Below, in pieces: positions 35,464 through 48,785 of a stretch of 56,249 nucleotides of DNA. Position 1 is the stretch's first letter. Each line of letters begins with the position of its first letter. A model generated the notes under the pieces. That model had not been told where the DNA came from. It ran no database searches and saw nothing but the letters and a program-made list of their open reading frames with translations. This DNA is from Candidatus Kaiserbacteria bacterium. Lineage in GTDB: Bacteria > Patescibacteriota > Minisyncoccia > Phycocordibacterales > UBA2100. A program made the position numbers and the translations under genes. The stretch covers positions 1 through 56,249 of the forward strand of contig JACPLC010000009.1 of assembly GCA_016186695.1 (NCBI GenBank), in the 5' to 3' direction.

Positions 35464-35497
35464 GGCCGGCGCGTACGCGCGCCGGCCCCGCTTTTTT
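35464..35497 (+). terminator. Rho-independent terminator
   Basis: ggccggcgcg-ta-cgcgcgccggcc followed by ccgctttttt. Confidence 0.75.
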
Positions 35498-35591
35498 ATA
35501 CGTGCGGTATCTAGTACAGTACTCCGATGGCAGGTTTCCCCGGTACCACAAGTCCTCCGGACTTGGCTACGGGGCAGGCAAACTTTTGTCT

Positions 35592-37658
35592 ATGAAATCT
35601 TCGAACATATTTACATTGAAGAGCGATTATCGACCCGCTGGAGATCAGCCGAAGGCTATTGAGGCGCTTGTAGACGGGCTTGAGAAAGGGAAGCGAGATC
35701 AGACGCTTCTCGGTGTTACCGGCTCGGGAAAGACCTTTACGGTGGCCAACGTCATCCAAAAATGGCAGAAACCGACGCTTGTCATCGCGCACAACAAGAC
35801 GCTCGCGGCACAGCTTGCCGCGGAGTATCGCGAATTCTTTCCCAAGAATGCAGTCCACTACTTCGTTTCCTATTACGACTTCTACCAGCCGGAAGCGTAC
35901 GTACCTATTACCGATACCTATATCGAGAAAGAGGCACAGATCAACGAGGACATCGAGCGCCTCCGGCATGCGGCGACGCAGGCACTCCTGACGCGTAGTG
36001 ATGTCATCATCGTCGCTTCGGTTTCTTGCATCTACGGCCTCGGCTCGCCGGTAGAATACGAAAAGGTCAATCTCAAGCTCAGAAAGGGCGAGGCAATGAC
36101 GCGCGCGACCTTGACGCGCAAACTCATCTCTATTTATTTCGAACGCACAGCAGGCGACCTTTCGCCGGGTACCTTCCGCGCGCTCGGGAGCCGCGTCGAG
36201 TTGATGCCCGCGAGCGAGCGGGTCATTTACCGGCTCGACCTCACCGGCGGGAAGATCGCAAAGATGGAGGAGATCGATGCAACGACGAGGGAGATTGGCG
36301 CGAAGCATGATGCGATTTTCGTATTTCCTGCGCGGCAGTACGTGACACCGAAAGATGTGCAGGACGCCGCGCTTGCCGACATAGAGTTGGAGCTTGCCGA
36401 GCGACTCAAGATACTGAACGCCGCAGGGAAAATCCTCGAGGCAGAGCGCTTGAAACGACGCACGCGGCAGGACATTGCGATGATCCGCGAGTTCGGTTTT
36501 TGTAGCGGGATCGAGAACTACTCGCGACACTTCGACCGCCGAAAGCCCGGCGAGCCGCCCTACACGCTTTTGGATTATTTTCCACACGACAAAGAGGGGA
36601 AGCCCGAATTTCTCACCGTTATCGATGAATCGCATGTGACCGTCCCGCAGATCGGCGGCATGTACGCGGGCGATCGGTCGCGCAAGCAGACGCTCGTCGA
36701 GCACGGTTTCAGGCTTCCGAGTGCCGTCGACAATCGCCCGCTCATGTTTGAAGAATTCGAAAAGCGGATAGGGCAGATCATGTACACGTCGGCGACCCCC
36801 GCGGCGTACGAACTTTCGCGAAGCGGTACGCCTGTGGAGCAGGTCATCAGACCAACCGGACTCGTCGATCCCGAGATCATCGTTCGCCCGATTGTCAGTG
36901 AAAAGGGGGAGATCGTATCTCCCGATATATCGGGAGATACGATCTCCCGACATCCCTATCCGGGGCAGGTAAAAGATTTCATTGCCGAGGCCGAGGCAGT
37001 GACAAAGCGCGGCGCACGTTCGATGGTCACGGTGCTAACGAAGAAGATGGCAGAAGACCTGACGCAGTTTCTCGTGGAGCGCGGCGTAAAGGCCCGCTAC
37101 GTGCATAGCGATGTGAAGACCATCGAGCGTATCGAGATTCTGCGAGATTTCCGGAAAGGCGTGTTCGATGTGCTGGTCGGCGTCAATCTCCTGCGAGAAG
37201 GGCTCGATCTGCCGGAAGTGGAACTCGTCGGCATACTGGACGCCGACAAAGAGGGATTCCTGCGCAGCGAAACATCGCTCATCCAAACCATCGGCCGCGC
37301 GGCGAGGAACGTGCGCGGCCGCGTGATTCTCTACGCCGACACCTCGACTGGCTCGATGGAGCGTGCGATAGGCGAGACGAACCGCCGGCGCGAGATTCAG
37401 ATCACCTACAACAAGGCGCACAAGATCACGCCAAAAACCATCGAGAAACGCATCCACGACATCGTGGGCGACATCGAACGCTCGCGGAGACGCGCGATAC
37501 AGGAGCTCACGCGGATGGACACGCATGCGTTCGCCGGCGATACGGAGAAATTGGTCAAAGAAAAGCGCAGGCAGATGCATGAGGCTGCCGACCGTCTCGA
37601 CTTCGAGACAGCGGCTCTTATTCGTGATGAAATTAGAGCACTGGAGCAGGCCAAGTAG
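35592..37658 (+). CDS. uvrB: Excinuclease ABC subunit B
   Basis: GDQPKAIEAL, GVTGSGKTFT, DESH, helicase motifs, C-terminal UVR domain (LDFETAALIRDEIRALE). Confidence 0.93.
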   Translation: MKSSNIFTLKSDYRPAGDQPKAIEALVDGLEKGKRDQTLLGVTGSGKTFTVANVIQKWQKPTLVIAHNKTLAAQLAAEYREFFPKNAVHYFVSYYDFYQPEAYVPITDTYIEKEAQINEDIERLRHAATQALLTRSDVIIVASVSCIYGLGSPVEYEKVNLKLRKGEAMTRATLTRKLISIYFERTAGDLSPGTFRALGSRVELMPASERVIYRLDLTGGKIAKMEEIDATTREIGAKHDAIFVFPARQYVTPKDVQDAALADIELELAERLKILNAAGKILEAERLKRRTRQDIAMIREFGFCSGIENYSRHFDRRKPGEPPYTLLDYFPHDKEGKPEFLTVIDESHVTVPQIGGMYAGDRSRKQTLVEHGFRLPSAVDNRPLMFEEFEKRIGQIMYTSATPAAYELSRSGTPVEQVIRPTGLVDPEIIVRPIVSEKGEIVSPDISGDTISRHPYPGQVKDFIAEAEAVTKRGARSMVTVLTKKMAEDLTQFLVERGVKARYVHSDVKTIERIEILRDFRKGVFDVLVGVNLLREGLDLPEVELVGILDADKEGFLRSETSLIQTIGRAARNVRGRVILYADTSTGSMERAIGETNRRREIQITYNKAHKITPKTIEKRIHDIVGDIERSRRRAIQELTRMDTHAFAGDTEKLVKEKRRQMHEAADRLDFETAALIRDEIRALEQAK
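36907..36948. repeat. 42-bp perfect palindrome inserted in frame in uvrB
   Basis: gggagatcgtatctcccgata|tatcgggagatacgatctccc encodes ...GEIVSPDISGDTISR... between the conserved DPEI.VRP and the downstream domain. Confidence 0.85.
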
Positions 37659-39587: not shown

Positions 39588-39689
39588 TGCTCGCAAAAAG
39601 TGAAAGAGGCTGCACGTCGCGGCCTCTTGTTGTTTATGATAAACTTACCGCACCTACCCCCTGTCGCAAATCAGGGGCTAGTTTGCGTT

Positions 39690-42461
39690 ATGACACCAGC
39701 AAAAAAACACGACAGCGACCCCGACGCTTCGGTCGGGGCCGGCAAAATCGTGGTGAAGGGTGCCCGCACCCATAATTTGAAAAACGTAACGGTTGAGATA
39801 CCGCGCAATAAGATGGTGGTGTTCACGGGCTTGTCCGGAAGCGGGAAGTCGTCTTTGGCATTCGATACGATCTTCGCCGAAGGTCAGCGCAAATACGTCG
39901 AGTCGCTTTCGGCGTACGCGCGGCAGTTTTTGCGCCAGATGCAAAAGCCTGATGTCGACGAGATCTCCGGCCTTTCTCCGGCCATTTCGATAGACCAGAA
40001 GAGCCGCTCCAACAACCCCCGCTCGACGGTGGCGACTATCACGGAGATTTACGACTACCTGCGTGTGCTCTATGCGCGTATCGGCCATCCGCACTGCCCG
40101 ACCTGTGGCAGGGAAGTGAGGAAACTCTCGAACGAAGAAATCCTTGAAACGGTGCTTGGTATTGTCGAAATCGCCCGAAAACACACAGCGCCAAAAGGCA
40201 AGCTCACAAAAGGCGTTTCGAGCGCAAAGGTCCGCATCAGCGCCCCGATGGTTGTCGGCCGAAAAGGCGAGTACTACCAACTCCTCTACGACATGCTTAA
40301 CAAAGGCTTCGAGAAAGCTATTGTGGACGGACAGGAAAAGTCGCTCCGCGAGCGCATCGAGCTCAAGAAGCACTTTAAGCACGACATTGATATCGTGGTC
40401 GATGAGATCTTTGTCTCGGAGTTTGCCGACGACCCGAAGGGGGCGCGCGAGCGTGCAAGCGAAGCAATAGAGCGCGCACTGCACGAATCGGAGGGCCTCG
40501 TGCGCATTACCGATGCGGCAGGAGAATCGCACATTGTTTCTGCGAAATTCATGTGTGCATACGACGGTTTTTCGTTTCCCGAGATAGAACCCCGCCTCTT
40601 TTCATTTAATTCCCCCTACGGAGCGTGTCCTGAGTGCAAAGGTTTAGGCACCAAATACTTCTTTGGCGACGAACCGTGCGATGTATGCAGAGGCGCGCGG
40701 CTTCGTCCCGAATCGCTCAACGTTTTTCTCGGCCCCTCCTCCGCCCCGCCTTCGCGTAAAGCTACGGACGGGCGCGGCAAGGCTACGGAGGGCAAGGCGG
40801 TTACGGGGATGGACATTGTAAAACTCTCCTCGCTCTCCATCGAGCATGCAATGGATTTTTTCAAAAAGCTGAAGCTCTCGAAGAAAGACGAAGAGATTTC
40901 GCGGGTGGTTATCAAAGAGATCACGAGCCGCCTGCAGTTCATGCTCAATGTCGGCATCGAGTACCTCACGCTCGATCGGAAGGCAAATACACTCTCCGGC
41001 GGCGAAGCGCAACGCATCAGACTTGCTTCCCAGCTCGGGAGCGGGCTTGTGGGCGCGCTCTACGTCTTGGACGAACCGACGATAGGGCTTCACCAGCGCG
41101 ACAACGACAAGCTCATCGAGACGCTGAAACACCTGCGCGATTTGGGGAACACAGTTCTCGTGGTAGAGCACGACGAAGATACGATTTTTGCCTCCGACTA
41201 CATCATCGATCTAGGGGTAGGAGCCGGAATTCACGGCGGTAGTATCGTTGCCTCGGGCTGGCTCGATCCTCTGCTTACGGCAAAAACCCTGAAGGAAATC
41301 CGCCAAAGGGCGGATTCCTACGGGGCAGGCGAACAAATCTCTCGGACGTTGCAGTACTTGAGAGGAGAATTGAAGATCGAGATGCCGGAGAAACGGCGCG
41401 CGGCAGACCGCGGCAAAATAAAGATCCGCGGCGCATCGAAGTTCAATCTCAACAAAATGAACGTGGACGTTCCGCTCGTAAAACTGGTCTGCGTCACCGG
41501 CGTATCCGGCTCGGGCAAATCCACCTTTCTCTACGAAATCCTCCATCGCAATTTACTGGCACGCTTCGATAAGCGCTATCGGAGCGCGAAGACCTACAAT
41601 GCTGCCGAGTTTTCGGGAACGGAATATCTTAGCCGTTCCATCCTTATCGACCAGTCGCCGATAGGCCGCACTCCGCGCTCGAATCCGGCGACCTACACTG
41701 GCGCATGGACGCACATCCGAGACATGTTTGCGATGAGTGAGGAGGCGCGTGCGCGCGGCTGGGGGCCGGGGCGCTTTTCTTTCAATGTGAAAGGCGGCCG
41801 ATGCGAGGCGTGTCAGGGGAACGGGCTCGTCGCTGTCGAGATGCACTTTTTGCCGACCGTCTATGTGACGTGCGACGTATGCAACGGCAAGCGATTTATG
41901 AAAGAGACATTGGAGGTGAAGATTAAAGGAAATACAAGAACCCGCCCGAACGACCGGTCGTCCGGTCGGGCGGGAAAGAGCATTCACGACATTCTCTCGA
42001 TGACGGTCGAGGAAGCGGGAAAATTTTTCGAGGACATTCCGGCAATCGCAGATCGTTTACAGACGCTCTCGGACGTCGGTCTTGATTACCTCGAGCTCGG
42101 CCAGAGCGCGACGACGCTCTCCGGCGGCGAGGCACAGCGCGTTAAAATTGCTTCAGAACTCTATCGGCCGCTCACGACGAAGACCATCTACCTTCTCGAC
42201 GAGCCGACCGTGGGTCTCCACTACGATGACGTCGCAAAACTCATCCAGATCCTGCAGAAGCTCGTCGAGCGCGGAAACACAGTCGTCGTGATTGAGCACA
42301 ACCTTGATGTTTTAAAGTGCGCAGATTACATCATCGACCTCGGCCCCGAGGGCGGCGCCGGCGGCGGCACAGTTGTCGCCAAAGGCACACCGGAGGAAGT
42401 CTCAAAAACCGACAGCTCGCACACGGGGTACTACCTCAAGCGTGTTCTTAAGAAGCGCTAA
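39690..42461 (+). CDS. uvrA: Excinuclease ABC subunit A
   Basis: GARTHNLKN, GLSGSGKSSLAFDTI, two ABC modules, zinc-finger cysteines (CPTCG, CPECKG, CEACQGNG...CDVCNG), LSGGEAQR x2. Confidence 0.93.
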   Translation: MTPAKKHDSDPDASVGAGKIVVKGARTHNLKNVTVEIPRNKMVVFTGLSGSGKSSLAFDTIFAEGQRKYVESLSAYARQFLRQMQKPDVDEISGLSPAISIDQKSRSNNPRSTVATITEIYDYLRVLYARIGHPHCPTCGREVRKLSNEEILETVLGIVEIARKHTAPKGKLTKGVSSAKVRISAPMVVGRKGEYYQLLYDMLNKGFEKAIVDGQEKSLRERIELKKHFKHDIDIVVDEIFVSEFADDPKGARERASEAIERALHESEGLVRITDAAGESHIVSAKFMCAYDGFSFPEIEPRLFSFNSPYGACPECKGLGTKYFFGDEPCDVCRGARLRPESLNVFLGPSSAPPSRKATDGRGKATEGKAVTGMDIVKLSSLSIEHAMDFFKKLKLSKKDEEISRVVIKEITSRLQFMLNVGIEYLTLDRKANTLSGGEAQRIRLASQLGSGLVGALYVLDEPTIGLHQRDNDKLIETLKHLRDLGNTVLVVEHDEDTIFASDYIIDLGVGAGIHGGSIVASGWLDPLLTAKTLKEIRQRADSYGAGEQISRTLQYLRGELKIEMPEKRRAADRGKIKIRGASKFNLNKMNVDVPLVKLVCVTGVSGSGKSTFLYEILHRNLLARFDKRYRSAKTYNAAEFSGTEYLSRSILIDQSPIGRTPRSNPATYTGAWTHIRDMFAMSEEARARGWGPGRFSFNVKGGRCEACQGNGLVAVEMHFLPTVYVTCDVCNGKRFMKETLEVKIKGNTRTRPNDRSSGRAGKSIHDILSMTVEEAGKFFEDIPAIADRLQTLSDVGLDYLELGQSATTLSGGEAQRVKIASELYRPLTTKTIYLLDEPTVGLHYDDVAKLIQILQKLVERGNTVVVIEHNLDVLKCADYIIDLGPEGGAGGGTVVAKGTPEEVSKTDSSHTGYYLKRVLKKR
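40733..40800. repeat. Family-B repeat inserted in frame in uvrA
   Basis: cccctcctccgccccgccttcgcgtaaagctacggacgggcgcggcaaggctacggagggcaaggcgg encodes PSSAPPSRKATDGRGKATEGKA. Confidence 0.75.
41941..41974. repeat. Family-A hairpin repeat (inverted orientation) inserted in frame in uvrA
   Basis: cccgcccgaacgaccggtcgtccggtcgggcggg is the reverse complement of the uvrC/tRNA copy minus 2 nt. It encodes TRPNDRSSGRAG between the conserved ...LEVKIKG and KSI.D.L.MTVEEA. Confidence 0.8.
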
Positions 42462-45697: not shown

Positions 45698-46827
45698 TTC
45701 TTAAGGCTCGCGATGAATTCGTCGAAAATCCACGCCGTATCAGTGGGGCCCGGAGATGCCTCGGGGTGAAATTGCACCGAGCGCCATGGCTTCGTTTTGT
45801 GGAGCATGCCCTCATTGCTGTCGTCGTTAGCATTTACAAACCACTCCTCCCAGCCCGCGGGCAGTGATTTCCCGTCTACCGCGTATCCGTGGTTTTGCGA
45901 GGTGATGTAACACCTGCCCTTCGTAGCTTTACTGTGTCCGTCCGAAGCCTTGCGCGAAGGAGGAGCGAAGGAGGGGCGGCCTATGAGGTCGATACAAGGT
46001 TGATTTTGCGAACGATGCCCGTACTTCAGCTTGTATGTCTTTGCACCTGCGGCGAGGGCAAGAAGCTGATTGCCGAGGCACACGCCGAGGATGGGCTTGT
46101 TCTCTTTCATCGCAGCGCGGATGTGCTCAATCGTTTTTTCGGCCATGATCGGATCGCCGGGACCGTTCGAAATGAGAAGGCCGTGGTATCTTTCTTTTGA
46201 GAAGTCGTAATCCCACGGTACGCGGATGACGGTCGCGCCGCGCGTGAGCAAGGAGCGCACAATGTTTTCTTTCATCCCGCAGTCGACTGCAATGATCTTG
46301 ATGCGGCCCTTGCCGTATATTTTTTTCTTTTTTATGCTGACGCGCGCGACGAGATTCTCCTGATTCGGATCTTTAAATATGGACACGCCGTGTCCATATT
46401 TTGTACTAGAAAGATACCCGAGTATCACACCGTGCTCGCGCAGTCGTTTCGTGAGCGCGCGGGTGTCTACACCACTCATCGCGGGAACACCTGATTTTTT
46501 CAGCCAATCGGCAAGTGAGCGCTTGGCGGTTGCATGCGAGTATTTTTCGGAATATTCGGATACGACGAGGCCCGCAATTTGAATTTTCCGCGACTCGAAA
46601 GGAGAGGCGTCGGGCTTGCCCTCCGAAGCCTTGGCGAAGGAGGGAACGCCGTAGTTGCCGATGAGGGGATAGGTACACACTAGTATTTGTCCGGCATACG
46701 ATGGATCCGTAAAAGCTTCGGGGTAACCAACCATGCCGGTCGCGAAGACAACCTCGCCGGCGACCGAGCGGTTTGCACCAAAACTCTTGCCCTCGATAGT
46801 CGTACCGTCTTTTAACAACAATTTCAT
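45694..46827 (-). CDS. carA: Carbamoyl-phosphate synthase small subunit (glutaminase)
   Basis: LLKDGTTIEGKSFG, TDPSYAGQI, GVCLGNQ (catalytic Cys), QFHPE. 4-nt overlap with carB. Confidence 0.92.
   Translation of the reverse strand: MKLLLKDGTTIEGKSFGANRSVAGEVVFATGMVGYPEAFTDPSYAGQILVCTYPLIGNYGVPSFAKASEGKPDASPFESRKIQIAGLVVSEYSEKYSHATAKRSLADWLKKSGVPAMSGVDTRALTKRLREHGVILGYLSSTKYGHGVSIFKDPNQENLVARVSIKKKKIYGKGRIKIIAVDCGMKENIVRSLLTRGATVIRVPWDYDFSKERYHGLLISNGPGDPIMAEKTIEHIRAAMKENKPILGVCLGNQLLALAAGAKTYKLKYGHRSQNQPCIDLIGRPSFAPPSRKASDGHSKATKGRCYITSQNHGYAVDGKSLPAGWEEWFVNANDDSNEGMLHKTKPWRSVQFHPEASPGPTDTAWIFDEFIASLKK
45913..45975. repeat. Family-B repeat inserted in frame in carA (copy 1)
   Basis: The gene-sense translation RPSFAPPSRKASDGHSKATKG interrupts the conserved GHRSQNQP..D...G / YITSQNHGYAV. 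Confidence 0.75.
46596..46645. repeat. Family-B repeat (short variant) inserted in frame in carA (copy 2)
   Basis: The gene-sense sequence ccctccttcgccaaggcttcggagggcaag... encodes PSFAKASEGKPDASP, inserted after the conserved IGNYGV. Confidence 0.7.
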
Positions 46828-47354: not shown

Positions 47355-47462
47355 ATACGAGTGTTCAGGATTTCATTCCAGACATACTGTGCGGCTCTTT
47401 GACATTGGCGTCAACTATTGAGATATGAACAACAACTTTGCGTCTTGTGTATACTCTCCGTC

Positions 47463-48785
47463 ATGATTCGAAGAGAACTTAAAAAATACAGGTTGCCGGA
47501 TGGGCCGGGAGTATACCTCTTCAAAAAAGGGCGGAAAATCCTGTATATAGGCAAGGCAGCATCTCTCCGTGACAGAGTGCGAAGCTACTTTTCTGCGGAT
47601 CTCGTGAATGGTCGAGGACAGGCCATTGTTGGTATGGTAGATGATGCCACGTCTGTTTCCTACCAAAAAACGGATTCTGTCTTGGAAGCACTTCTCCTCG
47701 AAGCGAGTCTTATAAAGCGTCATCAACCTCCTTTCAATATCGAGCAGAAAGACAACAAAAGCTGGAACTACGTTGTCATCACGAAGGAACCCGCCCGACC
47801 GGACGACTCCGGTCGTTCGGGCGGGGCTTTTCCGCGGGTTCTCATTGTTCGCGGTCGCGAACTGTATCAGGGGTGGGACAAGGCTGATATCAAACACCTC
47901 TTCGGACCGTTCCCGCACGGCGGGCAGTTGCGTGATGCAATGAAAATGGTCCGCCGGATATTTCCATTTCGCGACAGATGCACACCATGCGACGGGCAAC
48001 TTCGTCGAACAACACCACATTCTAATTCGCGCGAATTAGAATATAAGGATGGGAAAGTTCGGGAATGCAAACCGTGTTTTAATCGGCAGATTGGTTTGTG
48101 TCCCGGCGTGTGCTCGGGCGAAATGACAAAAGAAAAATACGCACAGACGATTCGCAGCATCCGCGAGCTCTTCTCAGGTAATTTCAAAGGCTTGAAGCGC
48201 CGGCTTGCGCGCGAAATGAAGGAGGCTGTAAAGCGCGAGGACTTTGAGGAGGCGGAGAAACTGCGCAGGCAGATCTCTGCGCTTGAACACGTGCGCGATG
48301 TCTCGCTCATTAAGAATGAAAAGCTTGTTTCTGCCGGTGGTGGAACGCGCATCGAAGCGTTTGACATCGCACACACTGCAGGGAAGGAGACTGTCGGCGT
48401 GATGACCGTCCTCGACAACGGCGAGCCATACAAAGCAGCGTACAGAAAGTTCAACGTCCGAACGGCAACGAACGATGATATTGCCGCACTGAAAGAAGTT
48501 TTGTCGCGCCGCCTGAATCATTCCGAGTGGCCTCTGCCGCGTGTTTTCGTTGTCGACGGCGGCAAGGCGCAACTGCGGGCCGCGGGCATTGTGCTGAAAA
48601 GCGCGGGCGTTATGATTCCTGTTGTCGGTGTCGTGAAAGACGAATTTCACCGTCCGGAACGGGTGATAGGCGATGAACGCATGATTCAGGCGCACGAACG
48701 CGATATTTTACTTGCCAACAATGAAGCCCACCGGTTTGCCATCGGATTTCACCGCGCACGCCAGCGAAAAAGTTTTGGACGGTGA
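47463..48785 (+). CDS. uvrC: Excinuclease ABC subunit C, short form lacking the C-terminal (HhH)2 domain
   Basis: GIY-YIG domain (GPGVYLFKKGRKILYIGKA...LLEASLIKRHQPPFN), UVR domain (FEEAEKLRRQISALEHV), nuclease domain ending ...NEAHRFAIGFHRARQRK. Confidence 0.88.
   Translation: MIRRELKKYRLPDGPGVYLFKKGRKILYIGKAASLRDRVRSYFSADLVNGRGQAIVGMVDDATSVSYQKTDSVLEALLLEASLIKRHQPPFNIEQKDNKSWNYVVITKEPARPDDSGRSGGAFPRVLIVRGRELYQGWDKADIKHLFGPFPHGGQLRDAMKMVRRIFPFRDRCTPCDGQLRRTTPHSNSRELEYKDGKVRECKPCFNRQIGLCPGVCSGEMTKEKYAQTIRSIRELFSGNFKGLKRRLAREMKEAVKREDFEEAEKLRRQISALEHVRDVSLIKNEKLVSAGGGTRIEAFDIAHTAGKETVGVMTVLDNGEPYKAAYRKFNVRTATNDDIAALKEVLSRRLNHSEWPLPRVFVVDGGKAQLRAAGIVLKSAGVMIPVVGVVKDEFHRPERVIGDERMIQAHERDILLANNEAHRFAIGFHRARQRKSFGR
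47790..47825. repeat. Family-A hairpin repeat inserted in frame in uvrC
   Basis: cccgcccgaccggacgactccggtcgttcgggcggg is identical to 51900-51935. It encodes PARPDDSGRSGG between the conserved ITKE and FPRV. Confidence 0.85.
48019..48042. repeat. 24-bp perfect palindrome inserted in frame in uvrC
   Basis: attctaattcgc|gcgaattagaat encodes HSNSRELE. Its 20-mer core recurs at 17888-17907. Confidence 0.8.

Follow-up and report, generated by a model that had tools for sequence, protein, structure and literature searches.

Hairpin repeats in described systems

The element considered here is a perfect 42-bp palindrome within uvrB of a Candidatus Kaiserbacteria bacterium (assembly GCA_016186695.1), and its closest described counterparts are repetitive extragenic palindromic (REP) sequences, their inverted doublets (REP doublets forming hairpins, REPINs) and the REP-associated tyrosine transposases (RAYTs). 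Examples are the REP/bacterial interspersed mosaic element (BIME) system of Escherichia coli with TnpA-REP (PDB 4ER8) and the REPINs of Pseudomonas; such systems have reportedly been set out by Nunvar in 2010, Bertels and Rainey in 2011 and Messing in 2012. They combine a dispersed short hairpin and inverted doublets of it with a Y1/HUH gene that has its own hairpin on both sides, in inverted orientation, at one hairpin family per paralogue, and with stems that co-vary with the enzyme lineage. These traits recur in the system described here, where the best fold match of the candidate enzyme is TnpA-REP on a REP hairpin. The differences are a T-CGT-A apex and an AT(G/A) foot without the GTAG/CGTC tag, a protein of about 218 aa that has a C-terminal extension and does not reach the NCBIfam RAYT cut-off, only 7 units per genome instead of hundreds, intragenic instead of extragenic dispersed copies, as many as 14 paralogues in a genome, an in-frame hairpin within the enzyme gene and a host from the candidate phyla radiation (CPR; Patescibacteria). 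The window analyzed, 56,249 nucleotides, is the entire contig C3 (JACPLC010000009.1) of a 902-kb, 10-contig genome, designated G000.

REPs that lie in frame and wholly within open reading frames (ORFs) were described by Di Nocera, De Gregorio and Rocco (2013; PMC3733652). More than half of them are dimers, with 20 to 30 aa encoded, and intragenic GTAG/CGTC REPs were listed in uvrA, uvrB, uvrC, uvrD, recBCD, polA and dnaE2. Those authors suggested that insertions are tolerated in flexible linkers, yet doubted that the bias toward repair genes was fortuitous; they found insertion of different REPs at the same site only for recB of two Xanthomonas species, and the CGTC class had no known transposase. 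The uvrB palindrome likewise is an in-frame doublet in a known gene, absent from shorter homologues, and so falls within that category, whereas the REP sequence classes and the phyla differ and nothing in that study resembles one linker occupied in 8 of 28 genomes. In-frame REPs in uvrA, uvrB and uvrC are already published; what is new here is the lineage, together with a linker hit repeatedly by different hairpins. The case extends REP/RAYT-type elements to the Patescibacteria.

Two further systems share part of this behavior. Rickettsia palindromic elements (RPEs), namely RPE-1 and the REP-like RPE-4 and RPE-6, are also translated in-frame palindromes in essential genes of a reduced genome, and the Rickettsia conorii uvrB homologue carries two of them, a REP being placed at residues 537-545 of RC0550; we know of no transposase for RPEs. 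RPE-1 measures 100 to 150 bp and the sequences are unrelated, the likeness being one of behavior only. The transposases of IS200/IS605 elements (IS608 and ISDra2 TnpA) have the same Y1 HUH fold and recognize subterminal hairpins in single-stranded DNA, but here the hairpin-gene-hairpin unit is single-copy for each hairpin family, and it is naked hairpins, not the gene, that are dispersed. CPR taxa are unmentioned in a classification of Y1 transposases (Quentin et al. 2018; PMC6006769), and within one searchable collection no paper joining RAYTs or REPINs with CPR taxa was found.

An inverted hairpin doublet in uvrB

The palindrome, GGGAGATCGTATCTCCCGATA / TATCGGGAGATACGATCTCCC, had been reported in a sequence-only reading of the window as a perfect 21+21 structure in which each arm is itself a hairpin. 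A repeat search of the window returned the same structure, with 21-nt arms that are 100% complementary and a spacer of 0 nt, and each arm does contain the hairpin GGGAGAT-CGT-ATCTCCC. The edges are final, as a G at 36906 and a G at 36949 block any extension. At up to 3 mismatches, the arm matched only its two palindrome positions in the window (shuffles with a match, 0 of 100). The full palindrome folds as one 19-bp hairpin, with energies of -23.3 kcal/mol as DNA (z = -7.8) and -38.4 kcal/mol as RNA (z = -7.2).

A genome-wide search with the arm showed that the palindrome is not unique, as five further units of the same repeat, here called family C, were found. A unit spans about 27 nt, ATRT-CGGGAGAT-(CGT/ACG)-ATCTCCCG-AYAT, with a 12-bp stem, a 3-nt loop (CGT) and an AT-rich foot. 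The seven units of G000 comprise two in the uvrB doublet, three at a RAYT-like gene on contig C4, one in pheT and one in recR (Table 1), and all four dispersed units are intragenic and in frame. We put at roughly 80% the probability of the following reading: in uvrB, this REP-like hairpin repeat forms a REPIN-like inverted doublet, its cognate enzyme is the RAYT-like protein of contig C4, and the doublet, acquired after divergence from the sister genome G015, has persisted because it keeps the frame, contains no stop and lies in a disordered interdomain linker. The palindrome is read as a REPIN-like doublet because the RAYT-like genes of relatives are likewise flanked by hairpins that co-vary.

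The gene itself is intact, with the Pfam domains UvrB, Helicase_C, UvrB_inter and UVR. UvrB was retrieved from 58 of 60 relatives, and the insert was delimited against 27 same-genus UvrBs. Between RP and GQ, UvrBs of the genus normally have 8 residues, IVSxGxYx; this genome has IVSEK, 16 residues and PYP. The sequence-only reading had placed the palindrome, in frame and stop-free, between the conserved DPEIIVRP and helicase domain 3, with roughly 24 residues added; the ORF, the Pfam domains and the ortholog alignment uphold the placement and the gain of residues without a stop but reduce the gain to 16, as IVSEK and PYP belong to the native genus linker. The insert is absent from unrelated UvrBs, since about 20 to 22 query residues between ...VRP(I) and (P)GQ... 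are unmatched in the solved structures, and from G015, the sister genome, whose UvrB is 90% identical (branch support 100/100) and has an empty 8-codon linker. The doublet thus appears, from this comparison of orthologs, to have been gained after the split from the sister species.

In an AlphaFold2 model of UvrB built with 29 orthologues, insert residues 434 to 453 of the 685-aa query are coil with a predicted local distance difference test score (pLDDT) below 50. They sit between the last strand of domain 1a (425 to 429) and the first helix of domain 3 (456 to 469), domains that we take to correspond to those so named in the Bacillus caldotenax UvrB structures. The insert is therefore predicted to be translated as 16 disordered residues that leave the gene intact, and it is presumably neutral. 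The idea that an empty linker is a decayed hairpin was rejected, as IVSxGxYx shows conservation at the protein level and borders every insert. A separate GC-rich hairpin, GGCCGGCGCG-TACG-CGCGCCGGCC, lies at 35464-35487, about 100 nt 5' of the uvrB start at 35592.

Beyond the ATRT foot that belongs to each family-C unit, no shared target motif was seen in the flanks. Relative to relatives, the proteins encoded by recR and pheT gain only 2 to 3 residues net from the 27-nt unit. A stop-free design was considered and rejected; the unit is open in all six frames, yet the same holds for 30% of random 12-3-12 palindromes, and stops do occur in sister families. A scan of genome contigs (596 Gb) with the 19-nt core gave more than 100 single matches in unrelated taxa, which is uninformative, as about 140 are estimated by chance from 16 specified bases. 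One further match, probably unrelated, was at a contig end of a Chloroflexi metagenome-assembled genome (JACQED010000023.1, 5168-5366), where three copies of the core, CGGGAGATNNNATCTCCCG, are spaced 60 and 120 nt apart, with the look of a CRISPR-type array.

A RAYT-like gene carries the same hairpin

The gene on contig C4 has a family-C unit on either side and a third inside it. Its 218-aa product scores 23.2 bits against Pfam Y1_Tnp (gathering score 23) and matches the NCBIfam REP-associated tyrosine transposase family at E = 3e-9; the motifs H73-x-H75 and Y133-x-H-x-N-P are invariant in 28 homologues. A search of the PDB with the sequence alone gave no match and profile matches were weak, so a fold comparison was needed. 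The AlphaFold2 model (pLDDT 83, predicted template modeling score [pTM] 0.82) has as its top Foldseek match 4ER8, E. coli TnpA-REP with a REP hairpin, at E = 7e-6 and a target-normalized TM-score of 0.61, followed by IS608 TnpA and ISDra2 TnpA. The protein represents a divergent branch, which Kaiserbacteria and Patescibacteria records label just "transposase" or "hypothetical". The two other paralogues of G000 (C2:31054-31665 and C10:101223-101780) are each flanked by their own distinct hairpin family.

We conclude that this HUH/Y1 RAYT-like protein is most likely the cognate enzyme of family C; it would be catalytically active and would mobilize the hairpins. Homology with TnpA-REP and IS200/IS605 TnpA suggests that the enzyme would bind the family-C hairpin in single-stranded DNA, that its tyrosine would cut beside the hairpin and that the hairpin would then be rejoined elsewhere. 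Insertions in coding sequence would survive only if in frame, stop-free and in a tolerant loop, and the uvrB doublet would have landed in the linker between the RecA-like domains 1a and 3, giving 16 disordered residues.

RAYT-like loci and hairpins in relatives

Across the genus, the RAYT-like family has multiple copies, and a single genome may contain as many as 14 paralogues. Among the 14 closest RAYT-like loci in relatives, a hairpin lies 7 to 25 nt 5' of the start in 13, with a CGT loop in 12, and a hairpin within about 30 nt 3' of the stop is present in 11, with the inverted ACG loop in 9. An in-frame internal hairpin at about +128 to +177 nt is found in 9 of the same 14, in addition to the G000 gene. 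This internal hairpin lies in a loop of the protein that is variable and modeled at low pLDDT, with the first strand/helix on one side and the HUH strand on the other, and the hairpin's sequence tracks the flanking hairpins; it could reflect autoregulation, concerted evolution or another hot slot.

The 12-bp stems were compared across 14 lineages. An invariant T-CGT-A apex and one G-C pair are conserved, 96% of cells are paired and both-side changes occur in 10 of 12 pairs, giving a covariation score of 0.85, versus 0.20 for shuffles and at most 0.16 for slid controls. As the units were chosen as hairpins, the high pairing is partly by construction, and it is the compensatory changes from one lineage to another that are informative. 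In one relative (G027), the uvrB doublet is a member of a 13-unit family with four doublets, three units of which accompany a RAYT-like gene (G027:C5:42536-43135); two of these flank it on opposite sides and the third is internal. In another (G030), a family-C doublet lies in frame in uvrA.

Several observations weigh against the reading of the palindrome as a RAYT-mobilized doublet. The copy number of family C, at seven, is tiny, and the family has neither the GTAG nor the CGTC tag found in described REPs, its foot being AT(G/A)T / A(C/T)AT. The RAYT-like protein reaches only 36.9 bits against the NCBIfam equivalog NF047646, whose cut-off is 80, and a sequence profile reaches 4ER8 at no better than E = 0.04. 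Family-C units are present in G030, yet its nearest RAYT-like gene has the variant CGGGATTT as its flanking hairpin. The 0.7-Mb genome G002 has 25 exact copies of AGAGGAC-S-GTCCTCT, several as inverted doublets and one in the uvrB linker, and no RAYT-like gene is detectable in it; G006 and G020 have lone linker hairpins without a cognate RAYT-like gene. An in-genome RAYT is thus not always found, and a different mechanism or an exchange of genes could play a part. Within the doublet itself, unit 1 is without the outer ATRTC foot, yet the arms are identical at 21 of 21 positions, so that inverted duplication in place is possible. Finally, this UvrB is a singleton in the protein collection, from one contig only, and thus there is no independent assembly of the gene.

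The missing foot bears on a local origin, in which one insertion brought in a lone 27-nt unit (36926-36952) and template switching or hairpin-primed repair later added an inverted copy of 21 nt of it. The arithmetic suits it, 27 and 21 adding up to the 48 nt of the insert and both being multiples of three. A related proposal is that the hairpins were spread by a non-RAYT enzyme, for example, a small GIY-YIG nuclease, as the 25 hairpins of G002 might suggest. However, inverted doublets with other junction geometry recur in G030 uvrA, in G027 (four of them) and in G002, as expected of REPIN populations, and family C is physically tied to the RAYT-like gene, not to a GIY-YIG gene. We regard local origin or spread by another enzyme as improbable.

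The single assembly matters for another concern, that of an artefact, as perfect palindromes can come from assembly or library errors, and scans of metagenomes for the 42-mer and for its left flank found no independent assembly. Here, however, the site is mid-contig (56 kb), and the uvrB sequence to its left and right is collinear; the 48 nt keep the reading frame; the palindrome is built from a repeat found at five other places in the genome; and analogous in-frame doublets occur in independently assembled genomes. An artefact accordingly has a very slim chance of explaining the palindrome.

The uvrB linker is occupied repeatedly in the genus

Seven genomes of the genus besides this one have an occupied uvrB linker, making 8 of 28 (29%), each with a different sequence (Table 1). 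Among 30 aligned UvrBs, there are two internal insert sites only, and the second has one occupant, a hairpin in G011. In the UvrB tree, the occupied genomes do not cluster; 8 changes are needed, at least 4 of which are forced by well-supported branches. A single origin of the occupied linker was rejected on these grounds. Insertion points differ by as much as about 9 nt, with no shared flanking motif visible. In a further genome, G017, uvrB is split over contigs C3 and C1, whose ends overlap at the linker (query residues 448 to 485), which may be an assembly break due to a hairpin or to strain variation.

Such recurrence raises the question of whether the linker is a targeted slot, in which hairpin-handling enzymes prefer this uvrB site and repair genes, possibly via single-stranded DNA in damage-induced genes while the enzyme is active, with survival in a tolerant loop not being the explanation. 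At least 4 independent gains at one 8-codon linker, with a single occupant at the only other internal site, would fit this idea, and the occupancy of 29% is far above that of individual pheT slots, filled in just 1 to 2 of 20 genomes. Repair genes also make up 3 of the 8 hosts of the RAYT-cognate families of G000, the G030 family-C doublet is in uvrA, and a like repair-gene bias was reported by Di Nocera et al. (2013; PMC3733652). On the other hand, the number of repair genes is low and this category was picked post hoc, and the remaining hosts are ordinary housekeeping genes, hit in interdomain linkers. Because unrelated hairpin families, presumably with different enzymes, converge on the linker, with insertion points that vary by a few nucleotides and no shared motif, we favor a selection filter over enzyme targeting as the cause of the frequent hits, and we hold the targeted slot to be a real but minor possibility.

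A broader conjecture, which we consider unlikely, is that the 1a-3 linker of uvrB and similar loops in housekeeping genes, especially repair genes, are a preferred slot for repeated insertion or exchange of perfect hairpins by hairpin-handling enzymes of these ultra-small bacteria, with lone hairpins perhaps kept perfect by self-templated correction or by a trans-acting enzyme. If true, the long-noted overrepresentation of REPs in uvrABC and rec genes would stem from mechanistic coupling, for example, through single-stranded DNA in damage-induced genes, and not mere tolerance.

The stability of the folded palindrome, and the repeated occupation of the same linker, could also mean that the hairpin is kept for a function, either as an RNA or DNA structure tuning uvrB expression or as a peptide that modifies UvrB. 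The lone hairpins of G006 and G020 are still perfect, and the stems in G020 uvrB equal those of a hairpin in G000 carA even though the two UvrBs are only 84% identical. Against a function, the linker is empty in 20 of 28 genus genomes, including the sister; the sequences and peptides of the occupants are unrelated; the insert is predicted to be disordered; and an Rfam search found no family, only sub-threshold matches to miRNA hairpins. We thus give a retained function little credence.

The repair-gene bias of REPs was reported in 2013 without explanation. The genus is a compact natural experiment, with dozens of genomes of about 1 Mb, many RAYT-like paralogues with their own co-varying hairpins and one 8-codon UvrB linker hit independently by at least 4, probably 8, hairpins; therefore, a tolerant loop and a targeted site can be tested against each other. 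For CPR annotation and protein modeling, many "lineage-specific inserts" in core proteins may be translated mobile hairpins.

Hairpins in other genes

Palindromes inside uvrA and uvrC, also claimed in the sequence-only reading, are present at the level checked (Table 1). The pattern is not specific to uvr genes, as like hairpins lie in linkers of pheT, recR, a 3-methyladenine (MPG) glycosylase gene, a valS-like gene, purH and carA. For the three RAYT-cognate families of G000, the repair-gene hosts are uvrB, recR and the MPG glycosylase gene; the other hosts are pheT, a class-I aminoacyl-tRNA synthetase gene (between the catalytic and anticodon-binding domains), a leuS-like gene and purH, and one copy is upstream of an fmt-like ORF, the names leuS-like and fmt-like being our own readings of the sequence. 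With 3 repair genes in 8 hosts and repair at about 4% of coding length (a rough estimate), the chance is near 0.003 in a test that is post hoc. Perfect hairpins with a stem of at least 10 bp number 139 in the genome (non-redundant), of which 69 are inside ORFs by a crude ORF call; by redundant count, the real genome has 318 and a shuffled genome 7.

Table 1. Positions of uvrB, its insert, family-C units, the RAYT-like gene, occupants of the uvrB linker in other genomes and hairpins in other genes. Positions without a contig prefix refer to the window.
Feature	Position	Strand	Description
uvrB coding sequence	35592-37658	+	688 aa as deposited; upstream GTG at 35502 would give 718 aa
Linker codons between helicase domains 1a and 3	36890-36961	+	IVSEK + insert + PYP
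Insert	36905-36952	+	48 nt = 16 codons, about GEIVSPDISGDTISRH; extra relative to the 8-codon linker of the genus (30 UvrB orthologues aligned with DNA)
Perfect 42-bp palindrome	36907-36948	n/a	Two inverted family-C hairpin units, REPIN-like doublet
Unit 1	36907-36929	+	Coding-strand loop CGT; outer 5' foot ATRTC missing, ...AAAAGG in its place
Unit 2	36926-36952	-	Complete 27-nt unit, ATATCGGGAGAT-ACG-ATCTCCCGACAT; inverted relative to unit 1, central AT common to both
HUH/Y1 RAYT-like gene	C4:79187-79846		218 aa, with C-terminal extension
Family-C unit before RAYT-like gene	8 nt 5' of start		CGT loop
Family-C unit within RAYT-like gene	C4:79318-79344		In frame, at +128 nt
Family-C unit after RAYT-like gene	4 nt 3' of stop		ACG loop, inverted
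Family-C unit in pheT	C4:55630-55656		In frame, interdomain linker between core and FDX-ACB domains
Family-C unit in recR	C9:14445-14471		In frame
Linker occupant, G020	uvrB linker		AAATATGGACAC-GGC-GTGTCCATATTT
Linker occupant, G006	uvrB linker		CCCCCCGAGGTT-G-AACCTCGGGGGG
Linker occupant, G030	uvrB linker		CTTCATCAAGG...CCTTGATGAAG
Linker occupant, G001	uvrB linker		AGCCTGCCTGC / GCAGGCAGGCT
Linker occupant, G002	uvrB linker		AGAGGAC-C-GTCCTCT
Linker occupant, G026	uvrB linker		Longer hairpin
Linker occupant, G027	uvrB linker		Inverted doublet, 22-nt arms, 5-nt spacer
uvrA coding sequence	39600-42461		Palindrome at 41941-41970
carA hairpin	46375-46401	-	AAATATGGACAC-GCC-GTGTCCATATTT, in frame, different family from C; encodes KYGHGVSIF
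uvrC coding sequence	47418-48785		12+12 palindrome at 48019-48042
MPG glycosylase hairpin	C9:11385-11405		In frame, RAYT-cognate family

The pheT orthologues have about five hairpin slots; the slot that holds the family-C unit in G000 holds a different hairpin in G001. Near the C-terminus, G000 pheT has a second in-frame hairpin, which is GC-rich (...CCCGCCCGACCGGACGACGCCGGTCGTTCGGGCGGG..., peptide PARPDDAGRSGG). The carA 27-mer, with its loop inverted, is what fills the uvrB linker of G020, where it encodes the same peptide; in G001 and G032, hairpins of this type border RAYT-like genes. The GGACAC-type hairpin, which we take to be family B of the sequence-only reading, flanks RAYT-like genes in these two genomes. 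A perfect 20+1+20 doublet, GTACAAGGTTGAACCTTGTA-G-TACAAGGTTCAACCTTGTAC, is present at C9:87751-87791, outside crudely called ORFs and 2.6 kb from the contig end.

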